Origin: a phage | Sequence record: PZ445448.1 | Reading direction: 5' to 3' (one strand) | DNA: 64,000 nucleotides | Shown here: one piece after another, positions 2,670 through 30,217 of the stretch | Position numbering within the stretch: the stretch's first letter is position 1 | How the letters are laid out: the number at the start of each line of letters is the position of its first letter | The notes under the pieces: generated by a model | The model's database searches: none | Seen by the model: the letters and a program-made list of their open reading frames with translations, nothing else | What the model was told of the DNA's origin: nothing | Made by a program: the position numbers and the translations under genes

Positions 2670-5093
2670 ATGAGTATGTGGAATTTTGACTTTGAGGCCT
2701 CAGGTCTTCTGGACGAGGAAGATCTTTACTACCATTGTGGCCTGTTTAAAGAGTTGAATAAAAATAATTTTATGTTGTTTTTGCCTATCAATGATAGATC
2801 TCATTACAGTGAAGAGGAGGTTGAAAAAGCAAAACAATTTATGCTGGCAAAGCAAGATATCTATCCTAGCTGCTCTGTCCGTATTGCGGATTTCAGCCAG
2901 CTTGAATGGTGGTTAACCGGGAACTCCGATTGGTCACCCACATCATTAAGTTGTCACAACTGTTTTAGTTATGACTTTATCTTGATGGAGAAGCTGTCTG
3001 GTATTCATTTTGATATGTTCCGTGATCCCAAGTGTATGGGGACAATCAATAATCATCAGGTGAACCTGTTCGACACTCTGCCAATGAGTCGTATACTATG
3101 GCCCGACAGACCGTTACCTAAAGGATGCCCTGATTCTGTATACAATCCTGTTACAAAACGTATGCAGCAGGTAGGTCCTCATGGCCTAATGGCGTGGGGG
3201 TACGCTTTAGGAAACCAGAAGGTTAAAATTGATGACTGGAGAAATTTACCTCTGTGGAAGTATGTTGATCGTGTATTCGAGGACGTTATCATCCAGGAGC
3301 TGCTCTGGAAAGAGCTGGTAGCGGAATCAAAAGGTGTATTCTACGGCAAATCTGACATGCAGAACTTTATGTACGATCCAGCCAAAGAGAAGCCGAAAGG
3401 GTTCAAGAAGATTACCTGGAAGAATGCATTACGCCGAGGCATGCTGCAGCATTTCCTGATGGAGCTGCAGGCTCGACAGGGTGTGTATTTCGACATAGAT
3501 GGGGCTATTGCTTTACGTGACCGCTGCGATGCGTGGATGAAAGAGATCGCTGATCGTGTTGAACCACAACTTCCTTTAAAAGAGTTATCAATGTCTCAGC
3601 GGCCTAAGTTCCCTGAAAAGCCGTTTAACCAGGATGGGACAATCTCCAATAATGGTTGGAAATGGTTAAAAGACAAGCTTGGCTACCCTGTGGACATGAG
3701 TGCTTTAGAATTCAAAGCTCCTCCTAAGCGAGCATTTACCTCCACAGGAGATGTCAGTAAGATGGGGATAAAATGGTGTGAAGAGATGGGCTGTAAAGAC
3801 CCTGATAAGATGGCGGATTTCTTGAGGGGCTATATCAAGGGCACCTCCACACCACAACCTTTACCTAAAGAGCTAATGGATCAGGCAATAAGTGATCTAC
3901 AGCAGAAGCGAATGCCTGACTGCAAGATACCTATGAAAATCAGCAATCAGGACGATATTAAGCGATACCTGATCAGTGCTGGTTGGCTTCCGACAATGTG
4001 GAGAACTAAGGATGTAACTAAAGACAGCAAGAAGAAAGCTCTACCTGATGCAGATGTTGATGCACGAGTGTATGCATATATGGACGAGCTTTTAGAGTCA
4101 GAGTATTGTGACCTAATTATCAACTTCTGGAACAAAACTGATGCTAAGTTCCAGACAACCGTGCACAAGTTCCGAAGCTTTCCTAACTCCGAAAGGATTA
4201 AAAAGGAAGTATTCGGGAAAATACGTAGAAAAGCTAGGGCACTTATTACTTCTCCGCAACTGAAAGATACGTTTGGACACCTATGCCCGAATCTTGAAAA
4301 ATTGAACGGAGAGATGGCTAAAGATATCGTCTTGTGGTTATCATTGCGAAACCGCAGATCGGTCCTTGATCCAATCAAGGAGGATAAGGTTGATACTGGT
4401 CTTCTTAATCACCCACGTTTGAAGATTGACCATAAGCTTCCTGCTAAAAGTTCTGGATTAACAAACACTTCCCGACAGAAACATAGTATTTGTGCAAACA
4501 TGCCTAAACCATCTCCTAAAGTGGTTATGGGTAAAGAGATGCGTAGTCTGTGGGGTGTTCCTCCAGGATACTTTGAGATCGGTATTGACGGGTCCAACTT
4601 AGAGCAGCTTATCGGGGCTTGGGGTGCCTTTGAGTTCGACAACGGCCTGTATTACGATGTTGTAAGTAACGGGGACGCACACCAAAACAATGCTGAGGCA
4701 TATACAAAAGTAGCAGGTAGAGAGGTGTCTCGTAACGACGGTAAACCTATCACGTATGGGGTTATGTATGGGGCACAAAAAGATAAAGTTGCAGATATGC
4801 TGGACATCTCTCCAGAGTTGGGACAAAGGGTAATCGATGCACTCTGGGATGCCAACCCTGGTCTTAAGGGGCGTAAAGAAGATCTGGAGAAATTCTGGGA
4901 AGCAACGGGTAAGAAGTTTATCTACTCTTTTGATGGTCATGCTATCTGGACCCGATCTAAACACTCTTTACTTAATGCATACCAACAAAATGGCGGCGCA
5001 TCGTTGTGTGACTTAGTTGGGATACTCATGCACCATCAAATGGTGAAGCGTGGGTGGTACGATGAAGGTGTTCGTCGTATTATCTATTACCAT
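2670..5093 (+). CDS. DNA polymerase, family A, exon 1 (3'-5' exo + polymerase motifs, ends before motif C)
   Basis: N-terminal FDFEASGL (DnaQ-like Exo I); motif B-like KPITYGVMYGAQ; ORF stops one codon after ...RRIIYYH; SD aaggag upstream. Confidence 0.8.
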
Positions 5094-7048: not shown

Positions 7049-7420
7049 ATGTTAGTAAAAGGTACCCACACAGTCAAACAACGTATTGAAGTTGAGATTG
7101 ATGATTGTGAGCTGAAGCATATTTTACGGTCATGCTCCAACGTTTTGCTCCTTAGTATTCTTCAGGAGCGAGCGGAGAACGAGTTCTTAAATGCATTGGC
7201 AGGCCGTCCCGGTGACTTCTGTGTGCGTAAGCGTGGTGACAACAAGTCGTGGTTGTGGGAGATCGATGCCGACTGGGATTACCACAAAAATGAGGGTATA
7301 GATGAGCCTATTCGTGAACTGACGGACAAAGAGATTCAGATGTACAATGAAGTTTGTCATTGGGCAACACGCCAACAAATTTACCTAGACCCTGTGTGGC
7401 TGATTGAAAATAGTCGTTGA
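7049..7420 (+). CDS. hypothetical protein
   Basis: Start moved to ATG 7049 preceded by gaggaggtagg SD. Confidence 0.5.
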   Translation: MLVKGTHTVKQRIEVEIDDCELKHILRSCSNVLLLSILQERAENEFLNALAGRPGDFCVRKRGDNKSWLWEIDADWDYHKNEGIDEPIRELTDKEIQMYNEVCHWATRQQIYLDPVWLIENSR

Positions 7421-9471: not shown

Positions 9472-10694
9472 GCGTTATTCAACAATTCGCTAACCCGATG
9501 AATCCGCGTGAAACTGTTTTACTGGCTCACGGCATGATTAAACGCGTCAGCATCAAGCCTATCAAAGGTGCTGATCCTACAACAGGTATTAAAACCACTG
9601 TGTGGCAAGGTAAGAAAATTGAATCCAGCCACACCATCTCTTTACTGATTTCTGAACTGGATTCCTCTGATAACCTACTTCAAGGTGGTGAAGAAGTTTG
9701 GATCAGTATGGGCGATAAGCTGCTTAAACCGGGTCATCAAGACTCTGTCTCTGTTAAAATTGATGACAAGTGGGAAACCGTAACGCCAGGATGGATCGTA
9801 AATATCCCTTTGAAGGCAAACGAGCATAACGGTAAGACCTACTACAAAGGCTCACTGGCTAAGATGGTTAAGCTGGGTGCAGGAGAGGCTCCAGCAGCGA
9901 CTCAGCAGCAAAAACAGCAACAAGGTGCACAATCACAAGGCCAGAAGCAGAAACCTCAGCAGAATGCCAATCAGGACGTTTTACGCATCTATGGTGATGT
10001 GACTCAGATTGTTGGCAACGTGGTTACTGTAAATGATCACAAGATTGGCGAAGGTGCTATGGTTGTAACTGATGAGCAGCTTAAAGACCTGGTGGTAGGT
10101 GGTCGTGTTGCAGCCATTGTGGACAAAGACACCGGAAACATTATCAGTGGTTTCAAAGCCTACCCACCTAAGGCAGAGAACGGCACTCAAGGCCCTGGTG
10201 GCAAGCGTAAATCCTCTTACGACCCTATTGGTGTGGAGACGGGGCATAGCATCAATGCGTTGCAGATCATCCTGGATCGTGGGTTTAAGGTAGACGACCC
10301 ACTAGGCGTGGCTAAAACACTGCACGTAGTCACCATCGAGCTTAAGAAAGAGTATGCTCAAGCCACCAACCGAACTGAAGATGAAGTAGGTGCCAGTGTC
10401 GGTAATGCGGTGTTGAACGCTTGTCGCCGTATTGACAAGAAAACGAAAGTTGATGATTTTGCAGCGGCAATTACTGCAGAAGCAAAAGATGTCTTGACTA
10501 ATCTGGCTGAGCCGTTGTACGATTGGATCAAGAACGGTGCTGGGTCAACTGACCATCAAGAACCTCAGGCTGCCAAACAGGAAGCAGCTCCACAGCAAAA
10601 CACTGTAGACGCTCCTCCTGTAAATGATGGGGAAGATGACCCGATGGATCAGAATCCAGCACAGTATGACTTCTGTGATGACATACCGTTTTAA
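9468..10694 (+). CDS. putative ssDNA-binding protein with SSB-like acidic C-terminal tail
   Basis: 408 aa; Q-rich linker (QQQKQQQGAQSQGQKQKPQQ); C-terminus ...YDFCDDIPF resembling E. coli SSB tip DDDIPF. Confidence 0.45.
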   Translation: MSVIQQFANPMNPRETVLLAHGMIKRVSIKPIKGADPTTGIKTTVWQGKKIESSHTISLLISELDSSDNLLQGGEEVWISMGDKLLKPGHQDSVSVKIDDKWETVTPGWIVNIPLKANEHNGKTYYKGSLAKMVKLGAGEAPAATQQQKQQQGAQSQGQKQKPQQNANQDVLRIYGDVTQIVGNVVTVNDHKIGEGAMVVTDEQLKDLVVGGRVAAIVDKDTGNIISGFKAYPPKAENGTQGPGGKRKSSYDPIGVETGHSINALQIILDRGFKVDDPLGVAKTLHVVTIELKKEYAQATNRTEDEVGASVGNAVLNACRRIDKKTKVDDFAAAITAEAKDVLTNLAEPLYDWIKNGAGSTDHQEPQAAKQEAAPQQNTVDAPPVNDGEDDPMDQNPAQYDFCDDIPF

Positions 10695-10756: not shown

Positions 10757-11173
10757 ATGACATTAGAAGATATCATTGTTAAACCTGAGAACTATGACCA
10801 ATACAACCTGTCAACTCAATCTGTAGACCTTGGATGCGCCACAGTTAGTGCGTGGCTGGTTAATGGAAAAGAGCTGGACAAGTGCTTAGAAGCTCACATG
10901 TCTGTTAACAAGTTTCTGGATGAAAATACTCACTGGCTTGAGGGTGCTGGAGTATATGCTTCATGGTTGGAGAGCATGGGCTTTGACTATCAATCTGATG
11001 AAGGGTGGTGGAGCTATCTAGCTATCTGTCCAGAAACACTGCAATGCTTCATGAAATACTCTGAAGATCTTGAGTACCGGGCGGTGGTTGATAGTGCTAT
11101 TGCCCGTTATAGCCGTAAACCTTTTTCCCATGACATTAAAACTGTGGAAGAATTTGTTGAAGTTTTCTGTTGA
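10757..11173 (+). CDS. hypothetical protein
   Basis: 138-aa ORF; SD aaggagatc. Confidence 0.5.
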   Translation: MTLEDIIVKPENYDQYNLSTQSVDLGCATVSAWLVNGKELDKCLEAHMSVNKFLDENTHWLEGAGVYASWLESMGFDYQSDEGWWSYLAICPETLQCFMKYSEDLEYRAVVDSAIARYSRKPFSHDIKTVEEFVEVFC

Positions 11174-11467: not shown

Positions 11468-11592
11468 GAGACTGTGATAGCCATGTTTTATGATCTTCCT
11501 GTAGCACCACCTGTTGAACCTGGAGAACTAAGATGATCTATGAAATGCCAAAATTGATCCGTGACGATGCCTAAAACGCTCACACCATTATT

Positions 11593-11958
11593 ATGGGCAA
11601 ACGCATGGATATTATTTGTCATAAAGATTTCTGGGAAGGAAGTTACTTCACAGAATATTTTGGTAAACTGGACAATGGTCTGCTGATCCAGTTCTACACC
11701 GATGCGGAAAACAACATTCACTGGGAGTTCGAAACTGAAGATATCCATAAACTTTTCACCTTCCTCGGTATTAAGGTTGAGGCCAAGTTTGAAGAAGGTG
11801 AGTGCGACGATTGTGGATTCTATGAGGTAACAGATTTCTATCTCCCGAGTGGTGAGAACCTTTACTATGAGAGTCACTTCGGAAACACCAACATGCCTCA
11901 AAGCTGGGAAGAATTTTTCAGTATCGTAGAAGAGGAGCTGGCATACCGTGATTATTGA
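11593..11958 (+). CDS. hypothetical protein
   Basis: 121-aa acidic ORF. Confidence 0.45.
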   Translation: MGKRMDIICHKDFWEGSYFTEYFGKLDNGLLIQFYTDAENNIHWEFETEDIHKLFTFLGIKVEAKFEEGECDDCGFYEVTDFYLPSGENLYYESHFGNTNMPQSWEEFFSIVEEELAYRDY

Positions 11959-12462: not shown

Positions 12463-12663
12463 ATGGAGACTAAAATCTTAATTCTGGCTGTGATAGATAC
12501 GACCGAAGGGGCCGTGTTCGAATCTGCAGGAGGGTATTTCTACCTGCCCTACGGAAAAATAACTTCCGAACCGAGTAAAGATTCAATCCTTAAAGTGTTC
12601 CCTTGTGCTTTCTGGCTGGAGATTCTAGTAGAAGATTGCAGAGGATTGGGGAGAGAATTATGA
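12463..12663 (+). CDS. hypothetical protein
   Basis: 66-aa ORF with SD agagaggg. Confidence 0.35.
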   Translation: METKILILAVIDTTEGAVFESAGGYFYLPYGKITSEPSKDSILKVFPCAFWLEILVEDCRGLGREL

Positions 12664-25367: not shown

Positions 25368-25787
25368 ATGAACATTAAATCTAATAATCCGGCATATAGC
25401 TTTGATAACGCTTTTTGTCACGGTCCGGCGGCGAAAGGATTCGAAATCGATGGTAAACTAATTATTGTCAATGTTGACGGGGAAGAGGTTGCAGTATATC
25501 CGGTGGCAGACGTAAAAAGCCGTTTACAATGCCGCATGGATGTTACCGCCTATCAGCTTGATCCGGTCCGCATAGTTGCCCTGGTCCTGGAAGAAGAAAT
25601 TAAAGCCATGCACCATAGCAACAGATTTATTGGTGACGCGCAGGATAATATGAAAGTATGCCGCCATAAAGTTAATGAAGTGCTTAAAGAGTACGGCTAT
25701 AAAGATCTTATGATCAAACGTGAGGAAAAATTCCGCTACCGTAACGACCTGGCAAATCGGATTTTTGAAATATACGAATCATTATAA
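25368..25787 (+). CDS. hypothetical protein
   Basis: 139 aa; SD agaggtaaaaacacc. Confidence 0.55.
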   Translation: MNIKSNNPAYSFDNAFCHGPAAKGFEIDGKLIIVNVDGEEVAVYPVADVKSRLQCRMDVTAYQLDPVRIVALVLEEEIKAMHHSNRFIGDAQDNMKVCRHKVNEVLKEYGYKDLMIKREEKFRYRNDLANRIFEIYESL

Positions 25788-25810
25788 TTTTTTAACTGAA
25801 TTATCAAGGG

Positions 25811-25836
25811 GCTTAGGCCCCTTTCTTTTTGTCTGC
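25811..25836 (+). terminator. rho-independent terminator ending plus-strand block
   Basis: aggggc tta gcccct then TTCTTTTT. Confidence 0.65.
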
Positions 25837-25839
25837 TCT

Positions 25840-28310
25840 TCCTCCTACCACAAACGGCCCAGCCTGGCAAGTGGAATAATTGACTAGCCATCAATCCCAC
25901 ACACTGTACAAATATACATGGAAAATAACTATTGCATAATTTTTCATTGTGTGGTAGCAGGTCCATTTTTACCCGTTTTCTCTCTCAAAATTGCACGTAA
26001 TGCCGCTATTGCACAAAATTTAACCTGATGCACATCTTCAATATCTTGTCAACAACTAAAAATCTTTATAAGTCATACACTTACACACTCACAAAAGCGT
26101 GTTCTACGTGAAAAATCGAGTATAACTATAGCCGCCAGATCTCAGAATTTACGTACGCTCACCATTCTATAGTCTGCTAAGTATTTATTCCAACCATGGA
26201 ATAACGGAATAGTCAATACCTGCATAAAATAATTATTCGTGTAAACTGCATAACATAAATCAGCTCAGGTGTCAACATTTTTCGTAAACAGTCCGAAATT
26301 GTCACGGTGAGTTATCATAAACAGAGAAATATTTAGTCGTCTAATGTTTACTGTACATTACTATACTGACTGGAATCATTAGATGACTAAGAGAAAGATA
26401 AGAAATAATTAACAATACAATTATTTTATCTGTAACAATAAGGCAACTATGCAAACGAATGGCATGGCGCGACGGAGTCGCGACATAATATAAAAGCAGT
26501 AACCATCACCCCCGTGATAGTTTGTCTGCAAACTATTAATCAGATCATAGTTGCCTTGTATTTAGTTAATCATGACATAACAAGCAAGGCAACTATAGAT
26601 CTTCTAATAGTTGCCCTGCTTTTATATTATGTCATAGAAACACCCGAAGGGGTGACCAAAGGTCACCTGGCATGGCCAGTGAAAGATTATTAACTTGTTA
26701 ATTGTTAACTTGCTAATTGTTTTCATGCAAACGAATGTCATGGCTTATCCTATCTGTGTAAACAGTCAAGGTGTAAACTATCCAGGCGTAAACAATCTAT
26801 ACGTGAACAGTGAAACATGAAATAATAACAGTCGTTATTGTGTCGAAAGTGTATAAGGTGTCATAGTATGTCAGACAAGTTTTTCTCCTCTTTGTCAAGT
26901 GCTGCATGAAAAATTTACAAGCTTGTATGGTAGCATTTTTGCTGCCCTGTTTACATTCAGTTGTGTATGTATAACCCTTGTTGTGTGGGCGTTTAGACGT
27001 CTAGACGGTTGGAAGTCCGCAGGTTAATATCTAATCTATTGGCTGCTAACTATATCCCACACAAATAGTAAGAAATATAATTGTTATGTGCGTAAACAGT
27101 AACTCATGTTATCAATCCCTGTATGTATCGCCAGTGGTGCGCATAATGGGTATTATGTTAAATTGCCCGTAATGATAACTATTCTCACAATGATAGGTAT
27201 TCTCATTCACTCCCACAAGATAGGTTGCAAATGTTGTGCCACTGTGTGAACGGCCTCACCTATTAATTTGCCTCACTGCCTCGATATTTGAGAATTGTTA
27301 TAAGAATGAGAAGTATTCCCATTTCGTCCGCCTGGCAGCACTCCAGTCGCTACCGCTCATGACAGGGCAGAACTAGACCCTCTTCAGATATTTCTGGCTG
27401 ACTCTTCAGGCCTGTGTGGGAAAAGCCAACCTCTCCGGCGGCGGGGAGGGGTTTGTCAGGAAAATTGCAGGTCAATTAAAAAATTTACGTGGTATATGAA
27501 GCGCTCTTCAGGTAAGGCATGTATTATGGGATGAAACCCTCTTCAGGCAATGATATTTGTGGGTGTGATATTTGCTGGAAAGCCAGATATGACGGGACTC
27601 CCGGCGGGGCAGGGGTAGTACAGACAGGGGAAATATGGAGGATGTAGTTGGGGGAGTTGATCAAACAGGTAGAGTATGGAATATGTTACAAGTATGTTAA
27701 ATATGGAGGGTGGATATCTGTAGGATTTATGTGTAAAATCAAAGACTTAAGTGGTGTTGTGGTATTTTCTATAAATAATTCAAGTTTAATAGGTAATATT
27801 TGTCTCTATCCGCTTTGTGTGGTAAACAAATTCAGATGGTGTTGGTTTACAAGTGTATACATAATATACAAATTAAAGATACAAGAAACCCCCCTCCCCC
27901 TTCGGCTACCATTCACCTTTTCCTCTGACTGGTACTTAAACACTTATTCAGACTCTTCAGGTTATCACCCATATATCATATGGCAGTGACTGGTGTCCTC
28001 CGGCCCCTCTTTCGTCACCCGTCCGCTTCGCCATGCTAATGCCATAGCCAATGGTTCGGTTGTTCACCCTGTTCACTCAGGTGTATCTCCATACCCCTTC
28101 AAACCGAAGAGAACAGAAAACCCGAATTACTCGGTAAAAGAAAAGAGAAGAACTTAATTTTATCAGGATAGGCAAGAATGTCAAGGCATGACTGCTCACT
28201 AAACAAGCAAACAGTCATGTGTGGGAGGTAAGTGATTGTGGTGGTAGGAAATTTAGTTGAAAGATGTGTTATAGGTGCTCCCAGCACTTTAGCCGGGTAG
28301 CTAATTGTGT
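25840..28310. repeat. 2.5-kb repeat-rich noncoding convergent intergenic region
   Basis: No convincing ORF; GGCAACTAT/ATAGTTGCC inverted repeats, GGTGACCaaaGGTCACC palindrome, GTAAAC clusters, CTCTTCAGG x5-6, G-rich motifs. Confidence 0.6.
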
Positions 28311-28311
28311 G

Positions 28312-28527
28312 TCAGTCCAGTGGTTCATCACCTACTTCACTGAAATCAATGTTCATGGTCTCCTCCCAACCATCAATCTCAGCACCAGAGTAGAGATCTT
28401 TAGGACTTACTCCCAAAGCATCAGCAACAGAGTCCATATTTAACACCTCTGGCAGGTATGATTTATCGAATTCAAGGTAAATCAGGCCACGAGTATTGTC
28501 AGCTCCACCAAATATTTCTATCTTCAT
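28312..28527 (-). CDS. hypothetical acidic protein
   Basis: 71-aa ORF, first gene of minus block. Confidence 0.45.
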   Translation of the reverse strand: MKIEIFGGADNTRGLIYLEFDKSYLPEVLNMDSVADALGVSPKDLYSGAEIDGWEETMNIDFSEVGDEPLD

Positions 28528-28648
28528 GAAATCTCCTCTGGAAATGAGAGTGTGAACAGGGTTTTATACGTTCCGATGCACAGGAATTATGCACGTTTTC
28601 CTCTTCAGGCCATGCTTTAGCATGAGGAACCTGTGTGGGCTCGGTGCT

Positions 28649-29062
28649 TCATAGTCTACCACCCCTGAACTCTTCGTGCTCAGGCATAATAGAGAACCAG
28701 ATATCTACGATGTCTTCCCACGTTAGGTCATCAGCCTCAGGATCTACCTGGAGCAAAGATGGAGAATCTTCAGAATCGAAGTTTTCCTCTTGCACTGGCT
28801 CAGTCAAGGGACATATAGTCACTCCTTTGGATGTCTCTTCAGATGCATGCGTGTTTATCATGTTCCACCCGTGAGTATTCCGGCAACAGCCGCTATGGAC
28901 GTAATGATCATCAGAATAACCACCAAAACCTCTGACAATGTTTTCATTGTGTATCCCATATTCTCCAAACGATGTGTGGATACTATCACTGGAGCGGCAA
29001 TGTGTCAACAGAAACGCCGCGAGGGTTTGGTTAAAATCCGAGCGTATGGTGATTTGGGTCAA
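28649..29062 (-). CDS. hypothetical protein (start uncertain)
   Basis: Acidic C-terminal half; minus promoter TTGACA..TAGTAT near 28960-28995 suggests internal start ~28861. Confidence 0.3.
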   Translation of the reverse strand: MTQITIRSDFNQTLAAFLLTHCRSSDSIHTSFGEYGIHNENIVRGFGGYSDDHYVHSGCCRNTHGWNMINTHASEETSKGVTICPLTEPVQEENFDSEDSPSLLQVDPEADDLTWEDIVDIWFSIMPEHEEFRGGRL

Positions 29063-29911: not shown

Positions 29912-30217
29912 TTATTCTACAGAGCGTTTGAACAGAATGTCTGCCTCAGACATGTGCTCAACCTCTTCTTCGATTTTAGCGCGACGTTTTTCAGCCTCAT
30001 AGCGAATATCGAACTCGGTAGCCACCAGAGATTTGATGAATTTAGGAGAATACAGGTGATCCTGCTTCTCAACGAGAATGATATCCTTAATGGCATCTTT
30101 CAGATCTTTAATCTGAAGTTGGAGTTCTACCAGTTCTTCGATTGTTTTGCGAAGGCGATCACGCTCTGCAGTGTCAGAAGGAAGAGAGGTGAACAGTTCA
30201 ACTTTAGATTTAGCCAT
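29912..30217 (-). CDS. hypothetical coiled-coil protein
   Basis: 101 aa, charged heptad-like sequence. Confidence 0.5.
   Translation of the reverse strand: MAKSKVELFTSLPSDTAERDRLRKTIEELVELQLQIKDLKDAIKDIILVEKQDHLYSPKFIKSLVATEFDIRYEAEKRRAKIEEEVEHMSEADILFKRSVE

Follow-up and report, generated by a model that had tools for sequence, protein, structure and literature searches.

The probable terminal repeat of the chromosome

The 64,000-nucleotide stretch of phage DNA analyzed here (sequence record PZ445448.1), referred to as the window in its whole length, contains a gene-free region of 2.5 kb at 25840-28310; all coordinates are window positions unless another sequence is named. This region is very likely the concatemer junction of a Vequintavirus chromosome, that is, the terminal region which bears its direct terminal repeat (DTR). 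It is best read as a junction of the T7 type because of the physical ends of related genomes, the invariance of both repeat boundaries, and the alignment with the ends of phage KPP-1. The 2.5-kb region matched 121 phage records with identities of 80-99% (88-96% among the full-length matches listed), and the matches with a taxonomy line belong to Vequintavirus, the rV5-like E. coli myoviruses of ~137 kb. The window itself is from a Vequintavirus, an rV5-like myovirus.

The HdK5 and Gotham records each begin and end with the same exact 459-bp repeat, which corresponds to window 26874-27332. In the Gotham record it is annotated as a 459-bp repeat_region at either end, and Korf et al. 2019 give a terminal redundancy of 458 bp for EdH4 and HdK5. 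A circular or concatemeric map such as the window has one copy of the repeat between two gene blocks. The boundary at 26873|26874 reads ...TATGTCA|GACAAGTTTTTCTCC and the one at 27332|27333 reads ...CGTCCGCC|TGGCAGC. Eight records in all have end points at these two boundaries: HdK5, EdH4, ECP2303, Gotham and EcoIv14a_Aya end at 26874, while bov10K2 and bov22_2 start at 27332, and so, to judge by its gene offset, does bov25_3. Neither boundary varies in ~15 relatives, among which the identity of the DTR is 0.90-0.96, and the conservation profile displays two troughs, each located exactly outside one boundary. As the DTR is situated between the gene blocks, transcription of both blocks runs toward the physical ends of the linear virion chromosome.

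The relatives thus possess what defines a fixed-end DTR, namely the same sequence at both ends and ends that are sequence-specific and conserved. Headful packaging from a pac site would entail a single imprecise initiation cut, heterogeneous downstream ends and a lack of fixed repeat boundaries; two sharp and conserved boundaries, common to records from several sources and to another genus, were found instead. This supports a fixed-end DTR junction and not a cos site, and a headful pac site is probably not present here. An earlier note, made from the sequence of the window, had listed a packaging (pac/cos) or terminase-binding region among its proposals. The packaging role is upheld by the ends of relatives and the 459-bp DTR inside the region, whereas cos is not and headful pac probably is not. 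The comparison with related genomes that the note had suggested as a check indeed places the physical ends of relatives inside the region.

Cut sites and a candidate terminase module

KPP-1, a Klebsiella phage of the genus Mydovirus in the same subfamily, was reported to have a 514-bp DTR, based on twofold coverage and the PhageTerm class "T7 type" (PMC9862379). In KPP-1, too, the DTR occupies a stretch with few genes where two blocks converge. This DTR and that of the window are homologous and both ends align; in the comparison of KPP-1 with Vequintavirus the aligned starts are GACGGAC and GGCGGAC, and the aligned ends are CTTGACAAGGAGAGAGAATTGTGTT and CTTGACAAAGAGGAGAAAAACTTGTC. The boundary of the 27332|27333 type, in which 43 nt separate GATATTT from CYGYC|TRRYA, aligns without gaps to the separately reported start of the KPP-1 DTR. 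Ends reported separately in two genera thus fall on homologous nucleotides, which argues strongly for real, sequence-specific ends.

When the window is aligned with a divergent metagenomic relative, with KPP-1 and with the plasmid pE275a_13, a member of the 13.5-kb family described below, the core of this four-way alignment has no gaps; GATATTT precedes the cut at a constant distance of 50 nt, and the cut itself falls within CYGYC|TRRYA. The segment at 27283-27337 (Table 1) is the most likely candidate for a terminase recognition-and-cleavage module, to which the terminase would bind. It is the plasmid copy that singles out this segment and suggests that packaging may start from the 27332 end.

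Table 1. Features of the terminal region and its surroundings (window positions; a dot marks features given without strand).
Feature	Position	Strand	Details
Intrinsic-terminator-like hairpin and T-run closing the plus-strand block	25806-25823	+	7 pairs, 5 GC, then TCTTTTTG
Conserved island 1	26026-26135	.	TGTCAACAACTAAAAATCTTTATAA ... GAAAAATCGAGTATAACTATAG; alignable (72%) with the divergent relative IMGVR 3300045988_159287
Nested inverted-repeat element, cruciform/hairpin-capable	26433-26636	.	18-nt perfect outer arms 26482-26499 / 26616-26633
Triple-hairpin element, copy 1	26623-26699	+	82 bits with model R1
Hypervariable short-repeat arrays abutting the DTR on its outside	26686-26873	+	ATTGTTAACTTG, GTRAACA 15-bp and TGTCA units
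Direct terminal repeat (DTR), 459 bp	26874-27332	.	Ends of the HdK5/Gotham records
Tandem 17-18-nt units in the DTR	27171-27205	+	AATGATAACTATTCTCA / AATGATAGGTATTCTCA; third copy 27305-27321
Candidate terminase recognition-plus-cleavage module	27283-27337	+	24-mer GATATTTGAGAATTGTTATAAGAA, 23 non-conserved nt, GCC|TGGCA; cut 27332|27333
Indel-rich hypervariable array outside the other DTR boundary	27333-27400	+	GGCAGCACTCCWGT-type units
Five same-strand CTCTTCAG(G) sites	27380-27961	+	27380, 27402, 27504, 27539, 27953
Conserved island 2 (unit 2), non-coding	27531-27631	.	CCCTCTTCAGG, GATATTTG twice, GGGACTCC, ACAGGGGA
Predicted conserved sigma-70-type promoter with stem-loops (island 3)	28040-28184	-	TTGACA-16-TGaTAAAAT
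Triple-hairpin element, copy 2, degenerate	28776-28851	-	61 bits with model R1; begins CTGAAGAG; inverted relative to copy 1

Convergent gene blocks and coding capacity

The plus-strand gene block ends at 25787, and the last minus-strand gene before the region is located at 28312-28527. The Alma and Murica records annotate a terminator at the strong hairpin which closes the plus-strand block. An alignment of 16 genomes over window 25700-28600 was used for the tests of conservation and codon periodicity. It displays no 3-base periodicity of substitutions anywhere in 25830-28310, whereas the flanking small genes, serving as positive controls, give p values of ~7e-5 and ~2e-6. The region is therefore truly non-coding, and the statement of the earlier note that two gene blocks converge here without a credible open reading frame (ORF) is correct. 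A test for small ORFs, based on 180-nt windows and candidate ORFs, revealed no periodicity apart from two marginal uncorrected values.

A 42-aa ORF at 27519-27647 with a marginal p of 0.05 was considered and rejected; by eye, a 1-nt indel in a divergent relative puts a stop in frame. An alternative 22-aa frame at this locus was rejected as well, with synonymous bias absent, and one frame common to the divergent relative has substitutions spread evenly, again by eye, across the three codon positions. The same 2.5 kb is devoid of genes in the curated BASEL record DrSchubert and in the rV5 record. A grey "non-coding" box is drawn here between convergent transcription units on the rV5 genome map (Kropinski et al. 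2013, PMC3606486); that paper mentions a change in GC skew at the box and assigns no function to it.

Repeats and conserved islands around the DTR

The short-repeat arrays at 26686-26873 differ in unit copy number among strains. Over 26650-26850 the identity to the window falls to 0.51-0.68 with 21-29% gaps, and conservation returns ~5 nt before the DTR. On the other side, ~12 nt past the cut at 27332|27333 are conserved, after which 13 of the 15 relatives have insertions that can be as long as 66 nt; the second conservation trough is at 27350-27400 and 27450-27500.

The nested inverted repeat at 26433-26636 is composed of four GGCAACTAT sites arranged as two inverted pairs, together with inner hairpins and T-runs on both strands. 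Against shuffled sequences its folding scores z = -8.3 for the RNA of either strand and -9.7 for DNA; this equal folding suggests a symmetry of the DNA rather than a strand-specific RNA. The element is 96-98% identical among relatives. The counterpart in KPP-1 has the same architecture without sequence similarity (21-nt perfect arms, z = -11.3) and is found 309 bp outside the same DTR end, vs 241 bp in the window. The inner hairpins are annotated as terminators in Alma and Murica and, with their T-runs, could be bidirectional terminators that shield the DTR.

Three islands, at 26026-26135, 27531-27631 and 28028-28168, survive in divergent relatives from one metagenome, where the other non-coding DNA is unalignable. 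The GATATTTG pair of island 2 is spaced 15 nt start-to-start, and the island is 77-79% identical in three divergent contigs. Its differences from the divergent relative are evenly distributed over the three codon positions as judged by eye, and the periodicity among close relatives is only marginal.

All repeats listed in the earlier note are present, with slightly corrected coordinates. GGCAACTAT is found on the plus strand at 26442 and 26588 and as reverse complement at 26547-26555 and 26607-26615, the 18-nt perfect inverted repeat at 26482-26499 / 26616-26633, and the palindrome GGTGACCaaaGGTCACC at 26651-26667. A 20-nt direct repeat occurs at 26449-26468 and 26725-26744, the second copy having been put incorrectly at 26716 before. 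The GTRAAC array with its 15-bp tandem period covers 26756-26810, G-rich strings are located at ~27432-27452 and 27600-27622, and a C-tract at 27889-27900. Enrichment was calculated post hoc by a binomial test of the region against the remaining 61.5 kb of the window. GT[AG]AACA has 10 of its 28 window copies inside the region (p = 5e-8), GGCAACTAT four of six (p = 3e-5), and CTCTTCAG five of 12 (p = 6e-5), the latter with 11 copies on the plus strand and one on the minus strand.

Four of the five CTCTTCAG sites in the region read CTCTTCAGG, and further copies are found at 28601 and 28835. Two paralogous units, 27402-27455 and 27539-27625, each consist of CTCTTCAGG, TGTGGG, GAAAGCCA and a G-rich hairpin-like string. 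The strand and relative positions of CTCTTCAG are kept in divergent relatives with unalignable flanks, and one site lies 103-109 nt ahead of a TGTTCAC pair in all of them. This retention suggests that CTCTTCAG may be a protein-binding motif. As a promoter element CTCTTCAGG was rejected, for its sites share no consistent -10 element at a fixed spacing. It was also rejected as a boundary of triple-hairpin elements, which holds for the 28835 site only; model R1 finds two copies of the element in the window.

The tandem units of the DTR form 7-1-7 inverted half-sites, TGATAAn-n-nTTCTCA, and similar AATGAGAAT / TGATAA..TTATCA motifs are present in KPP-1 and the 13.5-kb plasmids. Such half-sites are found at 4742-4757, 4800-4815 and 4944-4959 of KPP-1 (e.g. 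TGATAAG-G-ATTATCA) and at 7393-7412 of pE275a_13. The TGATAAn-n-nTTaTCA form resembles the Fur box of E. coli, which could be a coincidence or a host-factor site.

Promoter and triple-hairpin element

A minus-strand promoter reading into the region, as noticed earlier, is present at 29008->28980 with 10 of 12 matches. A better candidate is located nearer, at 28184->28157, with 11 of 12 matches and an extended -10 element (TG); it is aimed at the DTR from ~0.8 kb away. A CU-rich leader lies downstream of it, together with two stem-loops, the first of them a hairpin at 28134-28122, and a pair of GTGAACA motifs. The promoter of divergent relatives is TTGCAA-17-TGcTATAAT and their GTGAACA pair is invariant, while the first hairpin changes from CCGA/TCGG to CCAGAA/TTCTGG. 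This covariation is based on two effective lineages only, because the IMG/VR scans gave few loci (three with the 139-aa flanking protein and five with the DNA pattern). The predicted 111-nt transcript from this promoter folds no better than shuffled sequences (z = -1.7). No Rfam 15 family matched the whole window at gathering thresholds, nor 25700-28700 at E <= 1, and ARAGORN predicted no tRNA or tmRNA genes.

The 45-nt core of the first triple-hairpin copy, at 26637-26681, reads CACCC-GAA-GGGTG, GGTGACC-AAA-GGTCACC and CTGGC-ATG-GCCAG, followed by TGAAAG, and the element is bordered on both sides by TGAA(A/G)AG-like sequence. In five of its 13 base pairs both partners are changed, a covariation that was reached by none of 500 shuffles. 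Some close relatives carry copy 1, whereas HdK5, Gotham, naswa and others have a deletion of it. Copy 2 overlaps the 5' part of a 70-aa coding sequence (CDS) of relatives, and that part is aperiodic ([11,11,11]). A divergent relative carries up to four copies (10038-10113, 11025-11095, 11522-11596 and 12476-12548), two of them nearly in tandem. The start of copy 2, CTGAAGAG, was considered as a hammerhead-ribozyme core (CUGANGA) and rejected, as the GAAA and helix context was absent on reading the sequence.

The consensus of the T4 late promoter, TATAAATA, occurs exactly at 27770-27777(+) inside the gene-free region and is not enriched there (p = 0.18). A similar motif upstream of rV5 late genes is reported in the rV5 genome paper (PMC3606486).

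A family of 13.5-kb plasmids

By searching complete E. coli genomes, the triple-hairpin element was found with 86-88% identity on three circular plasmids of 13.6-13.7 kb, NZ_CP035869.1 (pE275a_13), CP134895.1 and NZ_CP020521.1, with a compensatory change in hairpin 2. Five members of the family are present in PLSDB, one of which is a 39.6-kb trimer. The plasmids encode a major capsid protein, a 706-aa tape measure protein, neck and baseplate proteins and two HTH proteins. The best-covering matches of the tape measure are those of Vequintavirus, with ~26% identity. A lambda-O-like initiator adjoins five 20-bp iterons, and neither terminase nor portal was detected among the plasmid proteins scanned.

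The 2.2-kb non-coding region of the plasmids possesses a 24-mer, GATATTTGAGAATTGTTAGAAGAA, identical at 23 of 24 positions to window 27283-27306. After exactly 23 unrelated nucleotides comes GCCTGGCA, so that both the spacing and the octamer of the phage cut site recur in all three plasmids read. Given the 24-mer as anchor, the chance of the octamer at that exact spacing is ~1.5e-5. The shared modules correspond to window 26634-26685 and 27283-27337, and the plasmids also carry TTGCCTGAAGAGG and ten TGTGTGGG sites. Apart from three short modules, local alignments between the DTR and the non-coding DNA of the plasmids scored no higher than shuffled controls. A 61-nt element, 85-87% identical between plasmids and phages and with a compensatory CCGAC/GTCGG vs CTGCC/GGCAG by eye, is located ~240 bp from the iterons of the plasmids.

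The retention of 24-mer, spacing and octamer by plasmids in which no terminase was found fits a cis signal that is read by the terminase of a helper. On the simplest reading, the plasmids would be satellites, or a miniature relative, using helper factors including the terminase. It is a tentative and somewhat doubtful proposal that the 24-mer with its cut site, the triple-hairpin element and TTGCCTGAAGAGG are trans-recognized signals copied by plasmid-borne Vequintavirus satellites which depend on the helper terminase. No paper on satellites of rV5-like phages was found in the literature searched. If true, the plasmids would represent a new type of satellite in a very common coliphage group, and the region would contain the first packaging signal of these widespread phages that can be approached by experiment. 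It is this plasmid family that merits further work.

Proposed packaging mechanism and known systems

In the mechanism that we propose, the terminase would recognize the module just inside one end of the repeat, GATATTTGAGAATTGTTATAAGAA with 23 nt and GCC|TGGCA, cut at 27332|27333 and start packaging there; the run would be ended one repeat-length further by another sequence-specific cut, at 26873|26874. With one repeat per junction and two cuts, the repeat would have to be duplicated, as in the T7 model, for which a hairpin intermediate was seen during infection (PMC4281155). Auxiliary cis elements of this process, or insulators of the DTR against transcription, may be represented by the arrays on both flanks, the oriented CTCTTCAGG sites, the promoter aimed at the DTR and the large inverted repeat situated ~240 bp beyond one end.

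This T7-like mechanism is drawn by analogy. The T7 junction comprises a 160-bp DTR, short-repeat arrays, a promoter toward the right end and the hairpin intermediate. Like T7, the window has a short DTR with fixed, sequence-specific ends, one copy per junction, a hairpin-capable inverted repeat near one end and a promoter ~0.8 kb off that is aimed at the DTR; the related KPP-1 was moreover called "T7 type" by PhageTerm. Short-repeat arrays lie directly outside both DTR boundaries in the window, as in T7, whose flanking arrays, together with the phiOR promoter to which ours is likened, are reportedly described by Dunn & Studier 1983 and Chung & Hinkle 1990. Unlike T7, the phage is a 137-kb myovirus without sequence similarity to it, the repeat is ~3x longer, both gene blocks run toward the ends whereas all T7 genes run left to right, and the promoter is of the host sigma-70 type and not of a phage-polymerase type.

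The candidate module resembles lambda cos, with its cosN and cosB, in being bipartite, with a recognition block at a fixed distance from the cut on the packaged side. It differs in being a candidate, and the chromosome ends in a 459-bp direct repeat instead of 12-nt cohesive ends. The satellite P4 shares the cos site of its helper P2. The 13.5-kb elements are similar to P4 as small replicons in which terminase was undetected and in which the candidate packaging signal of a large phage lies amid unrelated sequence. Unlike P4, they are free circular plasmids encoding their own capsid, tape measure and baseplate, and their satellite role is a candidate one.

The terminal repeat and the non-coding box are already known in outline for the genus, and the novelty is low because both have been published: the box of rV5 (Kropinski et al. 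2013) and the 458-bp redundancy (Korf et al. 2019) represent the same locus in close relatives. As far as they were read, these two papers do not place the DTR in the box, nor do they describe the boundary sequences, flanking arrays, inverted repeat or islands. Of practical value are the precise placement of the DTR at 26874-27332, the conservation of cut sites across genera, and the definition of a bipartite candidate terminase site. These can be used for orienting and annotating the many Vequintavirus records with arbitrary starts and for engineering therapy-relevant phages, and they may help settle conflicting PhageTerm calls.

Alternative explanations

Several observations weigh against a fixed-end junction with the proposed mechanism. 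The ends are transferred from relatives, 89-95% identical over the junction, and not from virion DNA of this phage, the terminase gene is situated beyond the 64-kb window, and the roles given to the inverted repeat, arrays, CTCTTCAGG sites and promoter are analogies. A counterpart of the second (left) DTR boundary was not found in the plasmids, where the two-cut scheme is thus not mirrored. Furthermore, PhageTerm returned "circular permutated" for the rV5-like phages bov10K2, bov11CS3, bov22_2 and bov25_3 (PMC8407724) and "headful (PAC)" for the rV5-like cocktail phage BpE1AUH (PMC13211470). These calls and the arbitrary start points of most GenBank records of the genus favor headful packaging from a pac site in the region, giving permuted chromosomes, with the 459-bp repeat being a convention of assembly or annotation. 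However, the same two end points are found in records from several independent sources, conservation changes abruptly at both of them, the separately reported ends of KPP-1 are homologous to both boundaries, and read depth is doubled over the KPP-1 repeat. Later record versions of three of the four bovine phages start at window 27332. Short DTRs are often missed by transposase-based libraries and default PhageTerm runs. Headful packaging is considered very unlikely because the PhageTerm calls weigh less than the shared ends and the conservation. Many small ORFs are annotated in the region in some records, with 13 hypothetical proteins in Mangalyan and 14 in PMBT16, as would be expected of decayed or mis-annotated coding DNA with small-gene remnants and functionless repeats. 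This is extremely improbable, as codon periodicity is lacking here and clear in the neighboring small genes, identity among relatives (90-98%) equals or exceeds that of the flanking genes, and motifs persist in relatives whose surrounding DNA no longer aligns.

The replication origin that the earlier note proposed did not find support. An origin is conceivable at which an initiator is bound by both the GTRAACA iterons and the inverted repeat, with melting of the AT-rich DNA and activation by the promoter; the window has its lowest G+C (0.36) at 26-27 kb, the strongly enriched GTRAACA units have a 15-bp period, the hairpin potential of the inverted repeat is very high, and a conserved promoter is close by. 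On the other hand, the cumulative GC skew at 27-28 kb is at its maximum and not its minimum, which looks like converging forks or a terminus rather than an origin, although transcription orientation, which phage skew also follows, gives the same sign. Within the region, conservation is lowest in the iteron-like array, whose copy number varies, in disagreement with an iteron-type origin, and no initiator-like gene adjoins the region according to Pfam and PHROGs searches of the flanking proteins, all of unknown function. A more typical candidate is found in relatives ~3 kb beyond the right end of the window and ~40 kb from the DTR, where an AT-rich stretch is followed by four 21-bp palindromic repeats GTGTCCGTATCACGGACAG. 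An origin in the region is thus quite unlikely, slightly less so than headful packaging. The earlier note had also proposed a structured locus for non-coding RNA (ncRNA), for which the evidence is divided. A locus chiefly for ncRNA is unlikely; its functional RNAs would be folded from transcripts that start at the 28184->28157 promoter or read through from both blocks, the candidates being the CU-rich leader with stem-loops, the CTCTTCAGG/G-rich units and the triple-hairpin element. It agrees with the hexamers and spacing of the promoter, kept while the spacer diverged, with the covarying hairpin downstream, with the five pairs of the triple-hairpin element changed on both sides, and with the conservation of the non-coding islands 2 and 3. 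It is at odds with the lack of Rfam matches even at E <= 1, the two effective lineages behind the covariation near the promoter, the z of -1.7 for the 111-nt transcript, and the folding of 26430-26670 equally on both strands and as DNA, as expected of DNA inverted repeats. Moreover, the helices first proposed from the repeat list cross and cannot all coexist, and transcript data were looked for and none were found.

Neighboring genes and records

The 61-nt element shared with the plasmids matches 119 Vequintavirus records, adjoining the origin-like region. In phage naam (MN850630.1) it is located at 1501-1561, ~280 bp from the origin-like intergenic stretch at 1720-1925.

Pfam searches of eight flanking proteins gave zero matches. 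PHROGs assigned the flanking proteins to families of unknown function only, plus one "transcriptional regulator" family for a 101-aa protein at 29915-30217(-). The gene for a 139-aa protein at 25368-25787(+), which adjoins the terminal region, is absent from HdK5, Gotham, Alma and SYGMH1 (PHROG 12277). The protein is 89% identical to the product of a Phapecoctavirus (phAPEC8-like) gene, found there ~0.1-1.7 kb from the record ends in several records, and looks like the product of an accessory gene swapped between the terminal regions of two phage groups.

Codon periodicity is absent from the minus-strand segment 28564-28662, a 32-aa ORF that is a small CDS in relatives, and from 28770-28861, the 5' part of a 70-aa ORF annotated in relatives. 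Between 28564 and 28861 it is found only at 28650-28739 (p = 1.6e-4). Patches of the non-coding terminal region probably lie beyond 28310 as well, where some of the small-CDS annotations may be spurious.

Nineteen MG0656xx records named as Campylobacter phages (e.g. "Campylobacter phage C9", marked UNVERIFIED) share 88-93% identity with vequintaviruses of E. coli across the region, and are probably mislabelled or derived from contaminating coliphages.

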